Notes under the pieces: model-generated
Told to the model about the DNA's origin: nothing
Seen by the model: only the letters and a program-made list of their open reading frames with translations
Database searches by the model: none
Position numbers and translations under genes: made by a program
In this document: positions 1 to 56,705 of the stretch, piece after piece
Layout: each line of letters starts with the position of its first letter
Position numbering within the stretch: position 1 is the stretch's first letter
Source of the DNA: Massalongia carnosa
Taxonomy: Eukaryota
DNA: 64,000 nucleotides
Assembly: GCA_965645245.1 (NCBI GenBank)
Contig: OZ287077.1
Coordinates: 868,001 to 932,000, forward strand
Reading direction: 5' to 3'

Positions 1-760
1 TAGTTCCGGTTGACTAAACTCCTGTAGAACCGAAAAGGCTTTGGTCCATTTAGTTAGTAGGCGGCTTGTCAGCCTCTCACCAATTGGAGGTCGCCCCCAT
101 CAGAACTAGTGTTCTGGTGTGCTAGGGACCAGGGGGGAAACAGTCTGCGTTATGATTCTCAGATTTGTGTATATCTCGATACCTCATTATCAATAATCGA
201 CGGTGATACTTTTCGTGTCCTTGTCGTTGACTGAAGTCAGCAAAGTAGATGAACGTGTAATTACTTAGATATCTCGGCTAGGGAAATATTTTTTCGAGCT
301 GGTATAAAGAACGCCGTTGCAACGTAATATGCTTAACGTTGTCCTGCTCTACTTCCCTACAGCTGGGTTAGCTTCTTCAGTTCTCTAACTAAACCTTTTC
401 AACAAACGTCAGATCATACCTTTCCACAGATGTCCTCTCTAAGTTGGCTTTCCTATGTCTTTCCCAAAGCTCTAGCTAGATCACTTGTGATCCCTTCTAC
501 AGGTTTTCTTCCTGGAAATCCTGCGGTGCCATCAAGCCTCGGTTCGAGCTAGAATGGCTGTGATACCCACCCATAAGATGACGGGAAGGTAGCGATCAAC
601 CTTTGGAGCGGCGATGTATGAAAACTCTTAACTGTCTAAATCGAGCTGAATGGTCCCAAGCTCTTGTCTCGTAAGTGATGATCGCATACACTGATGTAGT
701 GGAGGTTCTTGGTGCTTCTCAACAAAGATTGCAAAGTCCACAACTCATCGTTCCTCCAAA

Positions 761-10271: not shown

Positions 10272-13200
10272 CTAATCTGAAAATATGTTCCGGCTAGCCA
10301 TCAGCTCGTTATAAAAACCCAGGCCGTTGGGGCGGGTGTAATCGTGATCCTTTCGGGCGTAGGGAGATTTCGGAATACGAGGGGTTTCGTCCCTTCGGTT
10401 CCATCGAAGGAAAGGATCGGTATCGGTCCTCTCTTGCGGAGGATAAGGATTCGAGGGAAATCTGACCTCTGAGCCCCACCTCCTACTCATACCAACGTCT
10501 GCGCCCTTAACGTTGAGATCCAATACGTCCACCAGGCCCGCCGCAAACAGCGACCGTACCCTGTCGTCCGCAAGATATGCATGCTCGCCATTTTCCGACC
10601 TGTTATCCTTGCCGGCCAAGTCGCGGAACGCGACAGACAGCAGGCGCTCGAGGGCCTGACGGAACTCAACAATAGTGCTTGCGGCACTGCGGTCCTGGCT
10701 CTTGACGTACCACGGCAGCCAGCCGTCCATTTCGATAATATTAGAATGGCTTCTATTTATGATCTTGCCACCAAAGAGCGTGGCCATGAGGGGGGTACTT
10801 TCGGTAGTGTCGCGCAGAAAGATGGATCGTCCGTCGGTAGAGTGCGCCATGGCGCTGTAGCTGAACAGGGTACCCTGCCTTATGCTATCGCCATCTTTAT
10901 CTTTGTCGCGCGGGGCATTCACCGATGAAGGGTGAATCATGGCGCCGATCTCGCCAGGGGTGCGCAAGGAGCGGCCGCTACTTTTAACGGCCAAATTTGG
11001 GTGAAGCCCAGCGAGCGTAAGAGCTTTGATAAGGGGGACTTTGTTAGAATTTTCGTTGAGAGAAGAGGGGCCGAACTCGGAGTTGTTGCGAGCATGAGCG
11101 TGTGTGGAGGGGATGAGACGATTTTGGACGAGGAGCTCTTCAATCTGCCGCGCCGTGTTGTCAATGGTCCTGAATGCACCAATATGGATAAAATTATCCA
11201 CGGCGCAATCCTTCATCGCCCGCTCCCCGGACTGATCACGACGAGCGCGCAACTCGCGAACAGCGTTGACAAGAGCGATATGATCACTTCCGGAACCTTG
11301 CACGAATTCGCGCTTTGCAGCGTGAGCTTGTGCGCGATGCTCTAGCGGTGACACAAAGATCTGACGCTCAGAGGCAGCTGCACCAATTACTAACATCGGG
11401 TCAAGGCAGCGGAAGATGACACCAAGCACTATCATTTTACCGAGGGAGGGATGCACTGGTAATTGAGCGAGCACCCTACCCAAGGGAGTAATCTCTTCGT
11501 TCCATGTAAGAGCGTCTAATTGCTGCAAATTTACCACCGAAGCGTCAACGGCTCTTTCTGGTGGTGGTTCGATGGCTCCCGCGAGAAATTCCCGAATTGG
11601 GGTTGTGAATGCCTGCGCTTTGATGGCAAGGCAAGTCTCTTGCAGATCCGAGCGAAGCATTTCTGGAAGGCCAATGGCACGCATGGAGTCATAGCGCGCC
11701 TTTGGGAACAGGGCGTAGTAGTTGCCATTCTGTATTCTTCCGGCCCGACCAGCCCGCTGCTTGGAGTTGGACTTGCTGATCCAAGAACACACAAGCTTGG
11801 TGATACGGCGGGCGTTGTCATATTGCTTTTCTCTCACTTTCCCAGTATCCACAACATACTTTACATCTGTGATGGTGATTGATGTTTCAGCAATGTTTGT
11901 AGCTAGGATTATTTTTCGGCAGCCAGAGGGAACAGCATCAAATACTTCGGTTTGTCCGGTGGGAATGGATGAGTGTAAAAGGCAAATCTTGAACTTGGAT
12001 TCGTTGTTGAAATTGACGTTGAGGGGGTTCGACTCGGTAAGATAGCTTCGGACTTTGGTTATTTCCTCCAGTCCTGGCAAGAAGACCAAGATTGCGCCGT
12101 CGTCACTTATTTTAGAGATATGCGCAACAGTCAATGCAACAAGCCCGAAAGGGATCAAAGCATCGTCTTTTTCGTTTGTCGTGATGATCTCGCCTTCCGC
12201 CGAGATCTTACGCTCTTTTTTCCAATCGATGACGAAGTCATCGGCTTGGTTAGCAGAACTCGCACCAACTTCATGATTTACCGGCTGCTCTTGACAAAAC
12301 CTCTCGCTGGCTTCGAGATAGTCTCTAGTTGGAACATCGCTACGGAGGAGTTGCAATGCTGAAGCCGGATACGAGTCTCTAAGCTGATCCACAATTGTAT
12401 CCAAGTACTGTTTTTCCACAGGAAAGGTTCGCCCGGGTACGCTGACAATAGGGCACTCCTTATCTTTACCACCAATGCTGTTTCCGAAATAAGACGCGAA
12501 CAGATCAGTGTCAATTGTGGCACTCATCAGCACAATCTTTGGAATCGATTGACCTGCAGCGGCTCTTCGCACCATAACTTTCTTTAATATCACAAGGAGG
12601 AAATCTGTCTCTATGCTTCGTTCGTGGACTTCATCGATAATTAAATGCGATACGCTATCCATGACATCATCCGGGGCATGCTGGAGTTGCCGCAGAAGAA
12701 TCCCTATAGTGCAGAATGATATGCTCCCGCGGGTCTTCGGTAGTTTGGAGTCGAAGCGTACTTGATACCCCACGCTATCTTGCAGCCTCTCAGCTCGTTC
12801 TTCGGCAACCCGTCGAGCAACGGACGTAGCTGCAATCCTGCGAGGTTGCGTACAAATTATGTTACAGTCCGAGCCCCGACCTTTTGCAATGGCTTCTTCA
12901 AGAAGTATTTGAGGCACCTGGGTGGTCTTGCCACTTCCCGTGGCTCCCACTATGATACAATAAGGGTTTTCCGTCACCATATTTAGCACTTTCTCACTAT
13001 ATTGATTCATTGGAAGTTCTGATCTTTTCTTCCGAAGCTCCGCGAGTCTAGGGTTTTGAAGATACGCAGCACGAGCGGATTTCATACGCAAGTTTCTGAC
13101 GTTAGCCTGCTCCTTCCTTAGGGGAGTAAGATACCGGTGCATAGCCTTGCTGGCCTCAGATAACGCATTATCCTCTTGCGAGTGATCAGCCTCATCCGGT

Positions 13201-14802
13201 AATCCAGCATCACGAGCGCTTTGTAACGTCTCGCGCATCGTAAGAACACAGCTAATATCGACGACCATATCACCCACTGGGACGGGCCTGAGAATGTCTC
13301 CCTTACTGGATTTCGATGCTTGAGCAAAGTCTGATAATAAGTCTGGATGCTCTTTGGTGAGTACGATGGCGGCGGTTAAAAAAGCCAGATCCTCGGCTTT
13401 CGTCTTTTTTGTCATCTCCACGGGTTCTCCAATAGGCCGTCCATCAAGGATCACTTGAGCTTTCTTGGGTTCTGCACCATATGCCCTTCTGTTGATAGTT
13501 TCGCAATTCACCACCACCGAGGCGCGTGGGTGAAGGATTCTATAATACTCGAATAAGTTTCTGCTATTAGCGGTAGTCAATGCCGTAGAGTCATTGATGA
13601 TAATAGACCCTTCCCCACGTTCGGCGTGATATCTCTCTGCTTGCACTTTGAAGCGCAAAGCTGCCGCGACTTCTGCAGACCTTAGGTCTGTACCTCTTCC
13701 TGCAACTTTGATATTTTGTTCAGATAACTCAATGGTGACTTCAATGATTTTTTTCTTGCTGCGCAGGGATCGTGTTAAAGCCTGCACGTTGTACGTAGGG
13801 ACGCATTTAAATCGCGCGGCATAATTGTAGACATCAATTTTTCCATCCGCCTCATCGGCGAGAGTTTGCTTACCAACGTTGTCTGTTCCGCTTTCAAAAA
13901 TTTCATTTAGCAGACCAAGTTCATGAAGCTTGGCTAGTAAACTAAGATACGCGGCTGTTGTAGAAGATTTCTGGGTTACAGTCAGCCGGTTCCTACTAGT
14001 TCCCACTCTTAGGAAACTACCTTGCTCCTGCCTTCACCCATCACATCAAGTGACTGCTCGTGTACATGGAATTTACATTTCAGAGTGCATCGAAATACCC
14101 CGTCCCGCCCCAATTGTACGATTTCGGAGCGCGTCATCGCAACCCTTTGTAATGCACTATACAAAGTGACCTTCAAATCTGAGAAAAGTAAAGGAGGTAA
14201 TCTAGGGTACTCTCCCGCAGTTGGTAAGGATACGTTTTTACGAATGTAAGCTTCATCTTTCAGTTCACCATTAAATCGCGACTGAACCGCACCGCGCAGC
14301 CGCTGGGCAGGGGGCGGCACTGGAGATTGCTCTGCTCGACGCTTTGAAAGCTTGTGGGTCGACTTTGAAAAGCCTTCGTTGCGGTTACGCCACTGACTGG
14401 AACTCTGGGGGCTTGAGCTTTGTTGAAAATGTTGTTCCATGTATGAGACTACTTGAGCCTGAGATGGCGGATTGACCGACGGGATACTCGCCTCATTACT
14501 TGACTGTGTTTGAGATTTGGGGTCTGCCCGAGAAAGTTTCGTCCCACCATATAACAATGCCGACGGTAAAGTACCGTCATCTCGTCCTCTCACCTCGTGG
14601 GCGGTCGACTTGAGGCGGTTCTGCTGCAAACTCCTTGGATCTCTCCACGATTGCAAAGCAAGGATTTCCCTTGAACTGAGAGCAGACGGCATCGTACGCG
14701 CTCGTAACGCCTGGAGGAAGACAATATCAGTAAGAGCCTCACCAGCCAGACGAAGATGAAAGGTAGGAAGGGAAGAGGAGGTCGAACCAAAGCCCGTTTC
14801 AT
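10272..14802 (-). CDS. DExH/DEAH-box RNA helicase (DHX30/DHX36-like) with dsRBD-like N-terminal region, probably mitochondrial
   Basis: GATGSGKTTQVPQ, TQPRRIAA, DEVHER, MSAT, ATNIAETSITI, QRAGRAGR, followed by HA2/OB-like region. Intron near 13970-14021. Probable short first exon MKRAL from ATG 14802 (start is inferred). Confidence 0.9.
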
Positions 14803-15220
14803 GGCTCTTCGTAAACATGAAAATCAAACTTTACACATGATTAAGTAGGTAAGGAACTTTTGAACAAGGGTAAATAAGATACTTGGAGGTGTAGCAGCCA
14901 TCAATTAACAGCGCTGTGTTACGGCAAGAGTGAAGGGACGGAGGTGTAGATATAGAACAGTCAAATTTAGGTAGGTAGTTTAACAAAAAAAAACTTTACG
15001 GAGTAGACCAATCAGGATTGATGTCCAACTTTGCGTGATAAGTTATTACACAACTACTCCGTATTCCTATTCTTATTCGATTCTTATTCGAAGCACAACC
15101 TCACTCTTCTTACGGTTAAGTGATGAAAGGTACTTGATCTACAGAGTAAAAAACCCTCTAACTTTTGGCATCTCTTCAGTCAATCCCAAGAGCCAAAATT
15201 AAAATGTAACATAAATGTAA

Positions 15221-15352
15221 TGGACGTACAGGGATTTGAACCCTGGACCTTTCACAGACGCGCAGATGCGAAGCGAAAATCATACCCCTAGACCTACAAT
15301 TTATTAATGAATATGTCAATAAATCTAGAAATCAGTATCTTACCATGCGCCC
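15221..15352 (-). tRNA. tRNA-Ala(CGC) with a 10-nt canonical intron (15257-15266) and a 50-nt GT-AG insertion (15294-15343) between positions 9 and 10
   Basis: Removing both inserts gives GGGCGCA TG GTCTAGGGGTATGAT T TTCGC TT CGC AT GTGAA AGGTC CAGGG TTCAAAT CCCTG TACGTCC A. This is a cloverleaf with the G3:U70 alanine determinant, A73, a perfect T-arm, one C6:A67 mismatch, and T-runs downstream. Confidence 0.88.
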
Positions 15353-18335
15353 CATTGCGATGAAGATTTGAAGAATGTTCAAATATACATTATTTCTCAA
15401 ATAAAAACTCCCACTGAAGTAGGTTATCACCCGCTAACCAATTTTCAGCTTTAAGATCTCTACCAAAATTACAGATATGAGCAATAGAGAAGAGTACTCT
15501 CATTTGGAAGAGAGTACATGGAAAGGATGCCTGAAGTGATATCCTTGGCTTGTTTCTCATGTTTACTCGTGTAACAACACACATAGGAAGGCAAGGAAAC
15601 TAAAGAGAAAAAAATAGGTGTCAGATGTGGAAAACGACGGCAGGGTGATCTGGACTTGTTCTCCGATACTTCTCTCTCTTATATTTCGAGCAGTGTACGG
15701 AAACACATTTATAACAATGCTCAATATTAATCGACACATGCAATCTCGGATATTTTATTCTAAGGTACTCATATATAAACAATTTATTTACTATTTACTA
15801 TTATTAGTTCTCAACTCTACTTTAAAACTGACCATACAAAACCTGAAGTCGAGATTACATTTGTGAACACCCTATACAAATATCTTCTCTCACCGATCCA
15901 GCCGAGATCGACCAGCTGTGGTCCCCAAGCGAGGTCCACAGGTGAAAGCATGGCAAATTTCGACGGTATCTCACAAGGGATTTTAACGGTGAACAAAGGC
16001 GATTAAGATGACAGTGTTGGACTACGGAAGTATAGAGCTCGACTTTACGAACATCTCAATTCTTTAAGGCTCTGAGTTGGACGTGCGTGCTCAATTTGAA
16101 CTGGATCCTGTTTTGCTGGAAATTCTTGACGGTATTTATATGGATGCATTATCTTACCTGAAGAGCATATCAGTAAGTGGACAGAAGCATGCGGGGGTTT
16201 TCCTCCCAAGATGATGATGAGAATTCAATGTACACGCAAGACACACTTAAAATTTGTACTTCAAGTCAAACCTCCTTATTTGGCGCACCAAAAAAAGGCT
16301 TGCGCTCAGGCAAAAGCGTCATAGGTTTCGTTCAAAGCAGAAGGCTATTTGTTATTGCCTCCGAAGGATACATCATCATCTTAGTCCTCGATCCCTGATT
16401 ATTCGATTTTTGATTCCTTGATCCTTGATTCCTTGATCTTTGAGTGCTCAAACAATACAAGAGCGAAAACGGCATCTTTTAAACGGAAGTAGAATCTTGT
16501 GTTGGTTCTCCCAGCGCCTGCAAAGGACAACGGCTTTGGAAAAGATGAGATTATCGAAAGCAGAACCATCTTGGCCTTAACAACTCATCGTGTCATGAGA
16601 CAAGACCTGGCGTATGCGGTGCGACAGCCGAATCTTTGCAAAAATCTAGGTATCACCACACGAAGTGCTCAGCTATCCGAACTTTCGCTAACACAAAGCT
16701 GTTGTCTCTTGTCTAAACGATGGTTTGGAGATATTATGATACAAGAAATAAAGGCTTGTCAATGACTCGCGGTTTTGAGTGTGATGATGTAGTTGAAACG
16801 AGTCAAACTTCGAAGACAACCTTTGACTAGCTAGTTTGAAGTACCTGCTGTCAGACCTTGAGTAATCATTTGTTGCATGGGTTGCCATACCGCATAACCG
16901 TATTCGAAACATACAGTTTACAAATCGAGGATGCAGTTGCTGAGCTCTGTTGAGATCCTAATCATATAACATGCAAGTGCGAAAGGTTGATTTCAAAAAT
17001 CTTGAACGGGATGGTATCAGTATCATTGTCAGGTCATCAGCTAACATCTACAACTGGGCATATGAATACAAGACTGACTGGTGATTAACTCATTTTAAAC
17101 GACAAACTTGAGATGGCACTCAAGGACCAAAAATGTTGCGACACCAAAAGTATACATCATTTCGATGCTCCGGGACAACCACATTGACCAATATAATGAT
17201 ATAAGAGTTGTATCGAGATGTGAATTGTATTTCAAATAACATAAAGTACCATAGTGTTTCAAGTGTGCTGATTATTGTGTAAAAAATCAGCAACAAATAC
17301 GTCTTCGAAATGGTTTAGCCGATCATGGTGCTTTGGTGTCGCAACTTTTTTGGTCCCCATCTGGATGTATCAGAACACCGCAAAGGACATCTTCGCGCAA
17401 ACTATTGCCGAGAACTGCAGCAAGACCATTTGCTTTTATCTCTTGCAAAGTTCTAGTTACGCCTTGAAAAGGAATGGACTGGTGAGTGTCATCCGGAATC
17501 GAACAGTTAGAAGCGGAGTGTCTTGGATAGAGTGGGCATTATGAGTTGCAGAGTTGCCATTCTTGTGTAGCTGAGATAGATATGTACGCCAATTTCTGGT
17601 TCATATTTCGGAACCATTTCTGCCGAAGCCCCGCAAAAATACTGTATTTTGTGCTCGTTACCGTAGTAAGAGAGGCTTGGCTTAAGGTTATATCGAGGTT
17701 TAGACACATGGCTAATCATTGGACGGCGTAAACGCACAAAGCTTTCAACCCGCGCTTCCCAAGCCGCGGCTTGGCAAAAAGCTCCCCTAAGTAAAAGTCA
17801 AGATAAAAGTATAAGAACCACGCCTATTGAAGGCAGTTTTTGGATACCAGCTCTTGAAACAGATATGTTATCCACTACGTAGGAAAAACATAGAGAGAAT
17901 AGTTAGTTTAGTAAAAGGCCTTAAATTCTATCCTTAACGTCTGATGAATCAAGAGAAAAATGCGAAAGGAGACAAAAGGCCAGCAGACTCAAGGCATACC
18001 ATAACTGTGCCTTAACAAGTTCTCCCCACTTATGGGTATCCCATTGACTATGCTTCTGCAACTGAGGCTGTGTTGTACAATCTTGCAGTCATTCCGTTCG
18101 TTCGGTGCTTAGATAAAGGGGTTTTTTTCTTTCTGAAGTAAGACAGTCATGAGTATGAGATGGGCAATGGAGGTGATATTTGCTAGCCTCTGGCTTGTAC
18201 TCGAAACTCGAGGGAACTTTGTAAGTTGGCAGCAGTGCAGTAAGCAGGACAGTACAAGAAGAAACCAGAGTGATAGACCTGTAAAGCAGTCAAAAGCACA
18301 AGTGCCATTTGATTAAGTGATGGTGGTTAGTAGAT

Positions 18336-51948: not shown

Positions 51949-54900
51949 ATGCCCTCAAAAGCTTCCCGTCTCGCAGAGCTCAGAGCACTGCGCGCCTCTG
52001 GCAAGACACGCCTTTCAATTTATAAAGTTGAGGAAGCGGAGGATATTTATGATGAACATGATGAGACAGCCTACAACAAAGTTGTGAGAGCTCGTTTGGA
52101 CCAGGACGACTTCGTTATCGATGATAATGGAGAGGGCTATGCCGACGATGGACGAGAAGAGTGGATGGAAGAGCAGATATATGACAGCGGCAGCGGAAGT
52201 GAGCTGGATTTACCATTGAAGGGTAAAGCTGGTATGTCTGTGTCAGCAATATGATTTTCAGGAAACTAATGCAATCGAAGCCAAGAGAAAGCGTGAAGAG
52301 GACAAGGAGAAAGCAGAAAAGACTACCAATAACATCAACAAGTATTTTAGCAATGGCCCTGCTGCGGTAGCGCCGAAGTCGAAAGTATATGAGCAATTTC
52401 CTTTATCTATGAGGAGGCTAACTTTTCCTGCAGACGATTGCAACTGTTGAAGATGCTGCCTTCATGGCAGATTTGCTTGGTGAAGTTGATACAAACATAC
52501 CCTCCCATCAGCCTTTGAAAACCGTTAAAATCGCTGCCCGCCGGAAGATGCGTGTACTATCACCACCTATCTCTCAGAATCGGACCGTGTCAATTTCCAA
52601 ACCTAGGGCTAATGAACATTCTACCCACTTGTTGAATACGCCTCCGCTTGAAACAGCTTACGATGAAGATATGGCTTTTGCTGGGGGTCTCGATGATGAA
52701 GATTTCCCTCAAAACGACGAAATACCATCCTCCCCTATCACCAAAGCGGTTGAGCGCAAGAACCAACTACGCATTAAAGCCGAGGATGAGGATGACGAAG
52801 ACGTGATGGAAGTCGCTCAAGCCATTGGCGATCATAATGTCCAATCTGCTACAGTTAACATATCGGGTTCCCGCCCTGCGCTAAAGACAATCAAGAATGC
52901 TCCGTATCCTTCGCCCGAGAGCTCATCACCAACCCGCCCGCCTGCTGATATGATTGATCCGTCCGCTTGGAACCAGGTTACTTCGAAACTGAACGTATTA
53001 AGTGCTCAAGCGCCAGACACTGTTACCTATGGCAAGCTCAAGCTGGAAGATGCGATTGAGGATGATGGTGCTGTGCGCATGTTCTGGACAGATTACACCG
53101 AAGTCAATGGAAGCCTGTGCCTATTTGGTAAGGTGAAGGATAAAAATAGTGGTCTGCATGTCAGCGCCTTTGTGAAAGTGGACAACATTCTGAGGAAGCT
53201 CTATTTTCTTCCCAGAACATATCGTCAACGTGAGTTTGGGTTGAACATTTTCGATATATAGCTGATTTATTTAGGACATGGCCAAGACACCTCTGAGGAA
53301 ATAGAAATGGGAGATGTCTACACAGAAGTAGACGAAATTATGACCAAGCTTCGAGTTGGAATGCATAAGATCAAACCTGCATCGAGAAAGTATGCATTTG
53401 AGTTACAAGATGTACCAAAAGAAGCAGACTACCTCAAGTTGATGTATACATATGAAAGTAGGTAAAACTATCGAAGAGATTATTATGATTCTCTAACAAA
53501 ACTTAGAGCCTGCCTTGTCCCTAGGACTAAAGGGAGATACGTTCTCTCATGTGTTTGGAACAACCACTGCGCTGTTCGAGCAGTTTGTTCTTTGGAAGAA
53601 CATCATGGGGCCTTGTTGGCTCAAAATCGATGGTGCTGATCTAACCCAGCTTCACAACGCATCTTGGTGTAAGTTCGAGGTTGCGATTACCTCTCCAAAA
53701 GCTCTTGCTACTGTGCCAAACTCAGAAAGCATTGAGGCGCCGCCTCTAACGTTCATGAGTGTTGCCTTACGGACGGTCTTGAATGCCAAGGAGAACAAGC
53801 AGGAGATCCTCGTTGCTAGTGCTCGAGTCTACGAAAATGTCTTGATTAATGACACGACACAGCCAGAGCGGTTGCCTTGCAAGACATTTACGATCATAAG
53901 GCCCATTGAAAGTTCGTTCCCGGCAGGTTTTGATGCAGCAACCAAGAAGGAACGCGGCAGTATCATTCTGGCGAAGAGCGAGCAGTTGCTGTTGGCACAA
54001 TTTCTTGCTCTTATGGAGAAGATTGATCCAGATGTACTCATGGGTCATCAACTGCAAGATGTCGACTATCCTATCTTGCTGAGCAGGCTAAGGGAGAGAA
54101 AAACCCCTGGTTGGCATAGAATAGGGCGACTGAGGCGAAGCGAGTGGCCCAAGAACATGGGAAAGGGCGGAGGAAGCTTTTATGCTGAGAGACAGCTAGT
54201 GTCCGGGAGGCTACTATGTGACATCGCTAACGACATGGGAAAGGTATTGTTCTGTGCAGGCCTTCGAGTGTGATTGCTGACAGAAGTTACAGTCTCTTAT
54301 GACAAAATGTCAGTCTTGGAGTCTTACCGAGATGTGCGAGCTTTATTTAGGAGAAGGCAGTCCACGGCGTGAAATTGACAATGAAGTGGCACTCAAGACA
54401 TGGGCGACCTCGAGAGAAGGCCTCTTAAACTACGTTAATCACTGCGAGGCAGATACTTTCTTCATTACTGCAATTGCTCTGAAAGTGCAGATGCTGCCCT
54501 TAACGAAAGTTCTTACAAACCTGGCAGGTAATTCATGGGGAAGGACACTAAGCGGTACTCGCGCAGAGCGTAACGAGTATATTCTACTGCACGAATTCCA
54601 TAAAAACAAATACATATGCCCCGACAAGATATTCGGCAAAGGAAAAGTCAAGATCGAAGAGGACAATCCTGAGGGAGAGGAAGGCGTTGATGTGAGAAAG
54701 AAAGATAAGTTCAAGGGTGGTCTGGTCTTTGAGCCTGAAAAGGGGCTCTATGATAAGTTCATCCTAGTCATGGATTTCAACAGTCTGTATCCAAGCATTA
54801 TCCAAGAATACAACATATGCTTCACAACAGTGGATAGGTCGGAACAGGTATGGAACTTAGCCTACCTATTGACCGTCCAGAGCAAATATTGACTGCGTGT

Positions 54901-56705
54901 AGAATGATGGCGATGATAAAGTCCCAGATGTCCCTGAGGGCCAGAATCAAGGGATTCTACCTAAACTCATCGCTACCCTAGTCAGCCGGAGAAGGCAAGT
55001 GAAGAGCAATATGAAAGACAAAAGAGCTACTGCGGATCAACTTGCAACATGGGACATCAAACAACTTGCCCTTAAGCTAACAGCTAACTCTATGTATGGC
55101 TGTCTTGGATACACGCAGTCAAGATTCTATGCAAGGCCCCTCGCTATGCTCACTACCTTTAAGGGACGTGAAATCTTACGGAGTACCAAGGACCTTGCAG
55201 AAAGCGCTCAGCTTCAGGTCATTTACGGAGACACTGATTCCGTGATGATAAATACCAATGTAGATAATATGGAAGAAGCGCTCAAAATTGGCAAAGATTT
55301 CAAGCGCTCGGTCAACGATCGATACAAGCTCTTAGAAATCGACGTGGATAATGTCTTCCGGAGACTCTTATTACATGCCAAGAAAAAGTATGCTGCTATC
55401 AACATGGTTGAAGTAGACGGGAAATATGTCGATAAGCTTGAGGTTAAGGGCCTTGATATGAAGCGAAGGGAGTATTGTGCTTTATCGAAAGAAGCATCTT
55501 CGCGGTTGCTGAATGAGATTTTGTCCGGGGAAGATCCGGAGGTGGTTGTATCCAAAGTTCACGAATACCTTCGGGAGCTGTCACAAAAGATGAGAGAGGA
55601 AAAAATCCCTGCTCATAAATACATCATCTTTACTGTAAGCTTTCTGAACATCCTGTTTACCTGGTGGAAGACAAACTGATGGACCCTTCAGAAACTGGGC
55701 AAAAACCCGAAGGATTACCCAAACCCCGATAGCATGCCTCAAGTCCAAGTGGCTCTAAGATCGCTCGCACAGGGCAAATCAGTCCGGATCAACGACGTGA
55801 TCTCCTACATTATGACCTCAGCCGCCTCCTCCAATATCTCCCCTTCAGAATCAACAGCCAAACGAGCATACGCCTCTGCGGACGTCACAACTTCCTCTTC
55901 GACCCTAAAACCAGACATAGAGTGGTACATCTACAAGCAAATCTTCCCTCCCATCGAGCGCCTCTGCGCCCCTATTCCCGGTACCGACGCTACCCAACTT
56001 GCCGAATGCCTTGGCCTCGATACCCGCAAATACGCCATCGGCTCTATCTCATCCTCTAATCAAGCGCAGGAAATCTCTCCTCTGGAAAGCCAGATCCCTG
56101 ACTCGGTCCGCTTCAAGGACGCCGCACGTCTGACGCTTCAATGCCGTCACTGCAAGCACGCCTTCGCGTTTGAGGGCCTGCTCCCGTCCATCAACATAGT
56201 TACTCCTGAGGGCATCGTCTGCCCCGCTGACACCTGCAAGCGCGTCTTCTCGACCCTCACCGTTGTCGCGCAGCTCGAGCACGCCATCCGCCTTCAAACG
56301 TCACGATACTACTCCGGTTGGCTTGCGTGTGACGACCCCGCATGCGGCAACCGCACTAGGCAGTTGAGCGTCTACGGGCACCGCTGCCTAGGGCCGCAGG
56401 GCCGCGCCACGGGCTGCTTGGGGAGGATGGCATACGAGGCGTCGGAGAAGGCACTGTATAATCAGTTGCTATATTTCCGCGGCTTGTGGGACGTGGAAAA
56501 CATGCTGAGCGAGAAGGGGAGGCCGAAATTGGGGAAGCTCAGCAGCGGCGACGGCACCGAGACCGAGGAGAAGGTGAAGGCGGTAGCGGAGTGGAATCGG
56601 GAGAGGTTCGGGACTTGTCGGGAGGTGGTAGAGGGGTATTTGAAGAGGTGCGGGCGGGTGTGGGTGCAGATGGATGCGCTGTTCGGGTTCGCGATGGGGC
56701 GTTAG
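51949..56705 (+). CDS. POL1: DNA polymerase alpha catalytic subunit, about 8 exons
   Basis: [17 protein letters not shown]-terminus; family B motifs [39 protein letters not shown]-terminal Zn-finger cysteines. Confidence 0.97.

Follow-up and report, generated by a model that had tools for sequence, protein, structure and literature searches.

A putative spliceosomal GT-AG intron between positions 9 and 10 of a nuclear tRNA-Ala(CGC) gene in a lichen-forming ascomycete

The stretch of DNA analysed here (the window) is 64 kb long. The genes neighbouring the tRNA gene described below are eukaryotic (DEAH helicase, eIF4G, LRR protein). The best protein matches of the DNA polymerase alpha and of the helicase are from Lecanoromycetes; those of the polymerase are from Mycoblastus (76%), Alectoria (77%, part of the protein), Psora and Lecanora. 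By these matches, the host is a lichen-forming ascomycete of the Lecanoromycetes, and a run containing the locus is labelled as lichen metagenome. The polymerase gene pol1 (51952-56705, plus strand) has seven introns, all short (45-57 nt). A naive ORF scan splits the gene, since the introns at 53230-53274 and 55635-55691 keep the frame and each contain a stop codon. The DHX36-like DEAH helicase (10272-14692, minus strand, 1456 aa) has one 50-nt intron (14020-13971); the helicase call P0121 (1244 aa) does not include the first exon. Location of the tRNA inside the helicase gene was considered and rejected: the N-termini of the homologues are found at about 14692, about 530 nt downstream of the tRNA 3′ end on the same strand, and no helicase coding exon was found by homologue alignment upstream of about 14692.

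The tRNA-Ala(CGC) gene extends from 15352 to 15221 on the minus strand and includes five pieces (132 nt). The 5′ exon (15344..15352, 9 nt; ARAGORN, Rfam) encodes the 5′ strand of the acceptor stem (positions 1-7), U8 and G9. It is followed by a 50-nt GT-AG insert of spliceosomal type (15294..15343), located between tRNA positions 9 and 10. Positions 10-37 (15267..15293, 27 nt) include the D arm, the 5′ strand of the anticodon stem and the anticodon CGC (15270-15268). A 10-nt canonical tRNA intron (15257..15266; ARAGORN i(37,10)) is found at 37/38; its TGCG is complementary to CGCA of the anticodon region, so that the two could pair. The 3′ exon (15221..15256, 36 nt) encodes positions 38-73: the T arm, which carries an intact B box (15242-15232), and the 3′ strand of the acceptor stem with U70, A67 and the discriminator A73. 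All these features are on the minus strand. Re-reading of this strand gave the sequence and coordinates of the gene and of the insert, and a 10-nt intron at 37/38, as written in the original prediction.

Once the insert is removed, the stems of the cloverleaf pair, and G3:U70, U8, A14, the D-loop GG, the T loop and A73 are present. The acceptor stem includes a single mismatch, C6:A67. The predicted spliced junction (position 9|10) is GGGCGCATG|GTCTAGGGG. The insert starts with GTAAGA, ends with TGTAG, has a GC content of 0.22 (42% T) and contains no TTTT. Two branch motifs are found: TTAAT, whose A is located 10 nt from the 3′ end, and TTGAC, at 22 nt. GGT is repeated at both junctions; four cut registers, only one of which (1/4) is GT-AG, therefore lead to an identical product. 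The G3:U70 pair, U8-G9, the D arm, C6:A67 and the lack of TTTT had all been claimed before and read likewise here.

No tRNA was called in the native window, either by ARAGORN with introns allowed or by Rfam at gathering thresholds. Scripted removal of 15343-15294 leads ARAGORN to call tRNA-Ala(cgc) with the intron i(37,10). With lowered thresholds, ARAGORN proposes for the native stretch only an implausible 'Asn(att)' with a 56-nt intron. At a permissive threshold, 15221-15352(-) is covered by the full-length Rfam tRNA model (model 1-71), the alignment having a 61-nt insertion in the D region and one of 15 nt within the anticodon loop; the score of the native gene (23.1 bits, E 0.015) is below the gathering score of 29. 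As a control, every GT...AG segment of 30-150 nt upstream of the 33 B-box-like sites of the window was deleted, which gave 2271 variants. Only one deletion (1/2271) yielded a tRNA, namely the tRNA-Ala(CGC) gene without 15343-15294. No further tRNA gene, and no second one with such an insert, was thus found in the 64-kb window (2271 deletion variants, 33 sites). Taken together, the effect of insert removal, the control deletions and the span of the Rfam alignment confirm the observation. Exact GT-AG removal had been predicted to restore the tRNA, and ARAGORN indeed calls Ala(cgc) only once the 50 nt are gone. Standard scans had also been predicted to miss such a gene, and ARAGORN and Rfam at default settings are both blind to this one. 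The B-box-anchored GT...AG search that had been suggested, run here within the window by means of the control deletions, led back to the same gene (1/2271).

The insert was compared with mRNA introns of the same window. The reference set includes eight introns, seven in pol1 and one in the DEAH helicase gene; their validation rests on spliced translations that align with homologues without gaps. Prediction from reading frames alone had given 258 noisy candidates, and EM refinement had converged on nonsense; both were replaced by the homologue alignments. The validated introns are 45, 49, 49, 49, 49, 50, 55 and 57 nt long (insert: 50 nt). All eight start with GTA or GTG (insert: GTAAGA) and carry a YTRAY motif whose branch A is located 9-12 nt from the 3′ end (insert: 10 nt, TTAAT). 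Seven end with YAG and one with AAG (insert: TAG). Their GC content is 0.29-0.50, and that of the insert (0.22) is below all eight. TTTT is found in 3/8 and not in the insert; its absence from a sequence with 42% T has P = 0.34 by shuffling and is weak evidence. TTAAT is a weak variant of the branch motif; TTGAC, the other motif of the insert, is the sole well-placed branch motif in one pol1 intron. The donor of the insert scores 5.42 bits, versus 0.7-7.6 for the seven pol1 introns (leave-one-out), and is at the 95th percentile of 6706 GT sites. The acceptor scores 5.55 bits, within the range of the seven pol1 introns, and is at the 93rd percentile of 8375 AG sites.

The signals were also tested jointly on 50-mers (GTRNG, YTRAY with its A at 9-12 nt, and terminal AG). 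The joint test was passed by 2 of the 127,900 50-mers of the window, insert included, and by 3 of 200,000 random sequences having the composition of the insert. With all four registers counted, these rates exclude a chance insert at a level of about 1 in 10,000 or better. The other 50-mer of the window that passes (521-570, minus strand) probably belongs to the gene located at the left end of the window, as a genuine mRNA intron. Introner-like and other multi-copy intron-generating elements leave many near-identical copies in a genome; no second copy of the insert was found in the 64-kb window (blastn-short; only the self hit exceeded 16 nt). The original description of the insert as a GT-AG sequence with donor, branch and acceptor and with the length of an mRNA intron thus agrees with features found in all eight validated introns. 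The insert is very probably an intron of spliceosomal type, by both sequence and origin.

The insert is real DNA. Contigs of three runs (X1, X3 and X4) from two studies span it unchanged, which rules out an assembly artefact; the insert is fixed in the samples from the two studies. Upstream of the gene, the most divergent sample (run X4) shows two base differences and a 1-nt deletion, and these three are the only differences in 801 nt. The gene itself is identical, and three sites are too few to show constraint. Contigs of run X5 cover only 13/30 bins and show no differences. In the contigs of all four runs, no joint was seen across the insert.

An insert-free homologue is carried by a low-depth contig of X1 (record 2; depth 2 vs 438). 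It has an identical tRNA 5′ half and lacks the insert: it matches 15265-15294 and continues directly with the reverse complement of the first 8 nt of the gene. The insertion point is therefore fixed. The identity of the 5′ half shows that C6 is no recent change. The 37/38 intron of this homologue differs from that of tRNA-Ala(CGC). T-stem positions 49-50 also differ, yet the T stem is fully paired in tRNA-Ala(CGC). Another tRNA-Ala is found on a low-depth contig of X3 (record 4; depth 4.3 vs 844): its acceptor strand differs, it is longer by about 70 nt at 37/38, and a T8 run follows the gene immediately. The low-depth tRNA-Ala contigs of X1 and X3 probably belong to other fungi of the lichen thallus. 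No contig of comparable depth carrying a close paralogue matched the tRNA in X1 or X3, contig filters being applied; tRNA-Ala(CGC) may therefore be the only copy in the genome, a weak indication given these filters.

Insert-bearing orthologues were searched for in metagenomes with a pattern in which the 5′ exon is separated by 35-65 nt from the beginning of the D arm. Two loci were found (L001 789-861 and L002 1223-1295), neither of which is a tRNA gene. Both were rejected as orthologues, as no tRNA was found by eye or by ARAGORN in the native sequences or after removal of the gap (0/4 sequences). They are located on near-identical metagenome contigs, are chance pattern matches and look like a T-rich spacer downstream of the end of a coding region. 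In prokaryote genomes, a scan with a 27-nt word from the gene gave 0 matches.

The features flanking the gene include putative transcription signals. A TATA-like TATATTT (15381..15387, minus strand) is located 35-29 nt upstream of position 1 and could direct initiation. TATA[AT] is found at such a placement for 2% of the window positions and for 5% of the local intergenic ones (p about 0.02-0.05). Two T4 runs (TTTTAATTTT; 15195..15204, minus strand), 17-26 nt past the tRNA 3′ end, could possibly act as a Pol III terminator. An 11-mer made of the last AG of the insert and positions 10-19 (15285..15295, minus strand) is A-box-like, judged by the A-box consensus, and differs from the spliced A box at position 8 only. 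The insert had been proposed to split this box. It does interrupt it, but 10 of its 11 positions are retained 3′ of the insert, where AG replaces T8-G9. The A box is thus intact from position 9 onward, at a distance of 59 nt from position 1, and its relation to the B box is the normal one.

TFIIIC-directed initiation by Pol III generally occurs about 10-20 bp upstream of the A box. Given the usual placement of the A and B boxes, this rule would put the start inside the insert, and exon 1 would be skipped. Such a start is expected to be an obstacle to a full precursor, one that the original prediction had missed. TATA-directed starts occur in fission-yeast Pol III genes. A full precursor would therefore need either a TATA-directed start or transcription by Pol II.

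The explanation that we propose is that this nuclear tRNA-Ala(CGC) gene of a lichen-forming ascomycete is a working gene whose U2-type GT-AG intron at 9/10 is spliced, a reading that we put close to, and somewhat short of, an even chance. Its precursor would be transcribed from upstream of exon 1, by Pol II or under the direction of the TATA-like element at -35. In the nucleus, the 50 nt would then be removed by the spliceosome, and folding of the D arm and of the tRNA core would become possible only at that point. The tRNA would be completed by enzymes that require the mature fold, namely RNase P, RNase Z and the tRNA splicing endonuclease and ligase. The original prediction was that two splicing machineries may be needed. 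We hold tentatively the possibility that maturation to a working nuclear tRNA requires the spliceosome and, after it, the tRNA splicing endonuclease. The intron would most likely have arrived by reverse splicing or by intron transposition into a G|GT site, the same route as proposed for the introns of fungal U6 snRNA and lichen rRNA genes. The TATA-like motif upstream, the T4 runs downstream and the intact state of the other features of the gene count in favour of a working gene; the very short 5′ exon (only 9 nt plus leader) counts against it.

Two other origins of the insert have little probability. Chance filler DNA or a small mobile-element remnant, intron-like by accident, would be AT-rich like the nearby intergenic DNA (GC 0.22 for the insert vs 0.39 locally) and could leave the 3-nt direct repeat seen at the insert ends. 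This origin is nevertheless highly improbable, given the few 50-mers that pass the joint test in the window (2/127,900) or among composition-matched sequences (3/200,000), the lack of another copy in the window by blastn-short and the lack of terminal inverted repeats visible in the fold. It is very unlikely, too, that the insert is a non-canonical BHB-type intron cut by the tRNA endonuclease, as in Cyanidioschyzon merolae and nucleomorphs, with a coincidental GT-AG. The fungal tRNA endonuclease measures from the folded mature domain, which the insert prevents from forming. A search by simple script rather than by a dedicated BHB finder gave no 4-of-4 match to the 4-bp central BHB helix in any of the four cut registers, and neither junction is in a 3-nt bulge in the minimum-free-energy fold of the precursor; removal by the tRNA endonuclease is therefore unlikely. 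The full set of spliceosomal signals would moreover be a coincidence of about 1.5 in 100,000. These points outweigh the precedent of D-arm introns in nuclear tRNA genes of C. merolae (PMC3978253, PMC3728597) and the fact that the 37/38 intron of the same gene already needs the endonuclease.

The alternative that deserves most attention concerns the state of the gene. The insert would be of intron type, but it would have landed in a dispensable tRNA-Ala(CGC) and recently disabled it, the full precursor being lost or the insert retained. We regard this as plausible, at clearly less than an even chance. The insert would have arrived by reverse splicing and recombination, by intron transposition or by break repair, and the exons would be intact because the event is young. 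tRNA-Ala(CGC) can be dispensable where Ala(UGC) reads GCG, as in budding yeast; a dead copy could therefore persist. The Pol III start expected within the insert by the general rule agrees with a disabled gene, as do the GGT direct repeat at both ends, compatible with an insertion event, and the GC content of the insert (0.22), outside the range of the eight working introns. The C6:A67 acceptor mismatch could reflect decay, but position 6 is not newly mutated, the 5′ half being that of the insert-free homologue. Nothing else is damaged: the stems, G3:U70, A73, the B box and the pairing of the 37/38 intron with the anticodon are kept, and the T stem is fully paired despite the differences at 49-50 from the insert-free homologue. 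All splice signals are present and TTTT is absent. A disabled gene would also agree with the comparative data: a single insert-bearing tRNA was recovered from the window (1/2271 deletion variants, 33 B-box-like sites), neither the metagenome pattern scan nor the prokaryote word scan gave an orthologue showing conservation, and the divergence among samples is too low for constraint to be seen (X4: 3 sites/801 nt). Against a dispensable copy, the gene may be the only one of the genome, as X1 and X3 gave no close paralogue of comparable depth (weak, contig filters applying).

Spliceosomal introns are known in U6, U1, U2 and U5 snRNA genes and in rRNA genes, and reverse splicing is suspected, as described in PMC5855946; tRNA genes are not among the snRNA and rRNA hosts given there. 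Spliceosomal introns of Pol II transcripts and endonuclease-cut introns of tRNAs are presented as unrelated classes in PMC12530127. In lichen rDNA, ectopic spliceosomal introns are described as removed by the mycobiont, and Pol I transcripts carrying such an rDNA intron as being spliced in yeast (Armaleo and Chiou 2021, PMC8527467). The full-text literature searched, with subscription journals mostly outside it, gave no title or abstract reporting that a tRNA gene carries a spliceosomal intron. The insert would thus be an mRNA-type intron located ectopically in a gene for a non-coding RNA; the fungal group is known for such introns, but the class of host gene would be new.

The closest known systems differ from the tRNA-Ala gene in several respects. 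The fungal U6 introns (Schizosaccharomyces pombe and others; Tani and Ohshima 1989, 1991, in PMC5855946) are likewise short GT-AG introns with a branch site in a structured Pol III non-coding RNA gene. They are reported there to be removed by the spliceosome, their origin being put down to reverse splicing, whereas splicing of the tRNA-Ala insert is predicted. Unlike U6, a tRNA is not a component of the spliceosome, and proximity to the catalytic centre therefore cannot explain insertion in a tRNA. The tRNA-Ala gene also carries a second intron of a different class. As a tRNA promoter is internal, the insert shifts exon 1 away from the A box, unlike in U6. The introns of lichen rRNA genes (Bhattacharya et al. 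2000 as cited in PMC8527467) are also from Lecanoromycetes, short, of mRNA type and located in a gene that is not transcribed by Pol II; as in tRNA-Ala, the ectopic mRNA-type intron is described beside introns of another class in the same gene. These rRNA genes are multi-copy and transcribed by Pol I, and intron removal is documented; the tRNA-Ala gene is of Pol III type and maybe single-copy, and removal is predicted from its sequence. In Cyanidioschyzon merolae (Soma et al. 2013, PMC3728597; PMC3978253), nuclear tRNA genes with more than one intron, including one in the D-arm region, are likewise described, and standard tRNA finders likewise miss genes with such ectopic introns. These are BHB introns cut by the endonuclease, whereas the tRNA-Ala insert has no BHB and carries the full spliceosomal signals.

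If it is spliced, tRNA-Ala(CGC) would be the first demonstrated case of a spliceosomal intron in a tRNA gene. The spliceosome of lichen-forming fungi would then serve all three polymerase classes (mRNA, rRNA and a tRNA gene), and the exceptions beyond snRNA and rRNA genes would reach the most abundant class of Pol III genes. Such a gene would raise two questions: how a promoter located 3′ of the intron allows exon 1 to be transcribed, and how splicing copes with a first exon of 9 nt. It would also provide a dated, single-locus intron gain in a gene without reading frame. Insertion-blind finders would undercount tRNA genes in lichen-fungal genomes; the failure of the ARAGORN and Rfam defaults on tRNA-Ala(CGC) would account for the lack of annotation of such genes. 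Were the gene dead, the insert would still show that intron-type sequences can land in tRNA genes.

Insert positions 12-25 (15319-15332) are paired, in the minimum-free-energy fold of the precursor, with the 3′ splice site and the D arm (15284-15297, minus strand). The pairing involves 14 pairs, 6 of them G·U, and runs through a common TCTAG. Until resolved, it would in this model keep both the D arm and the 3′ splice site inaccessible, and it may reflect either chance or regulation.
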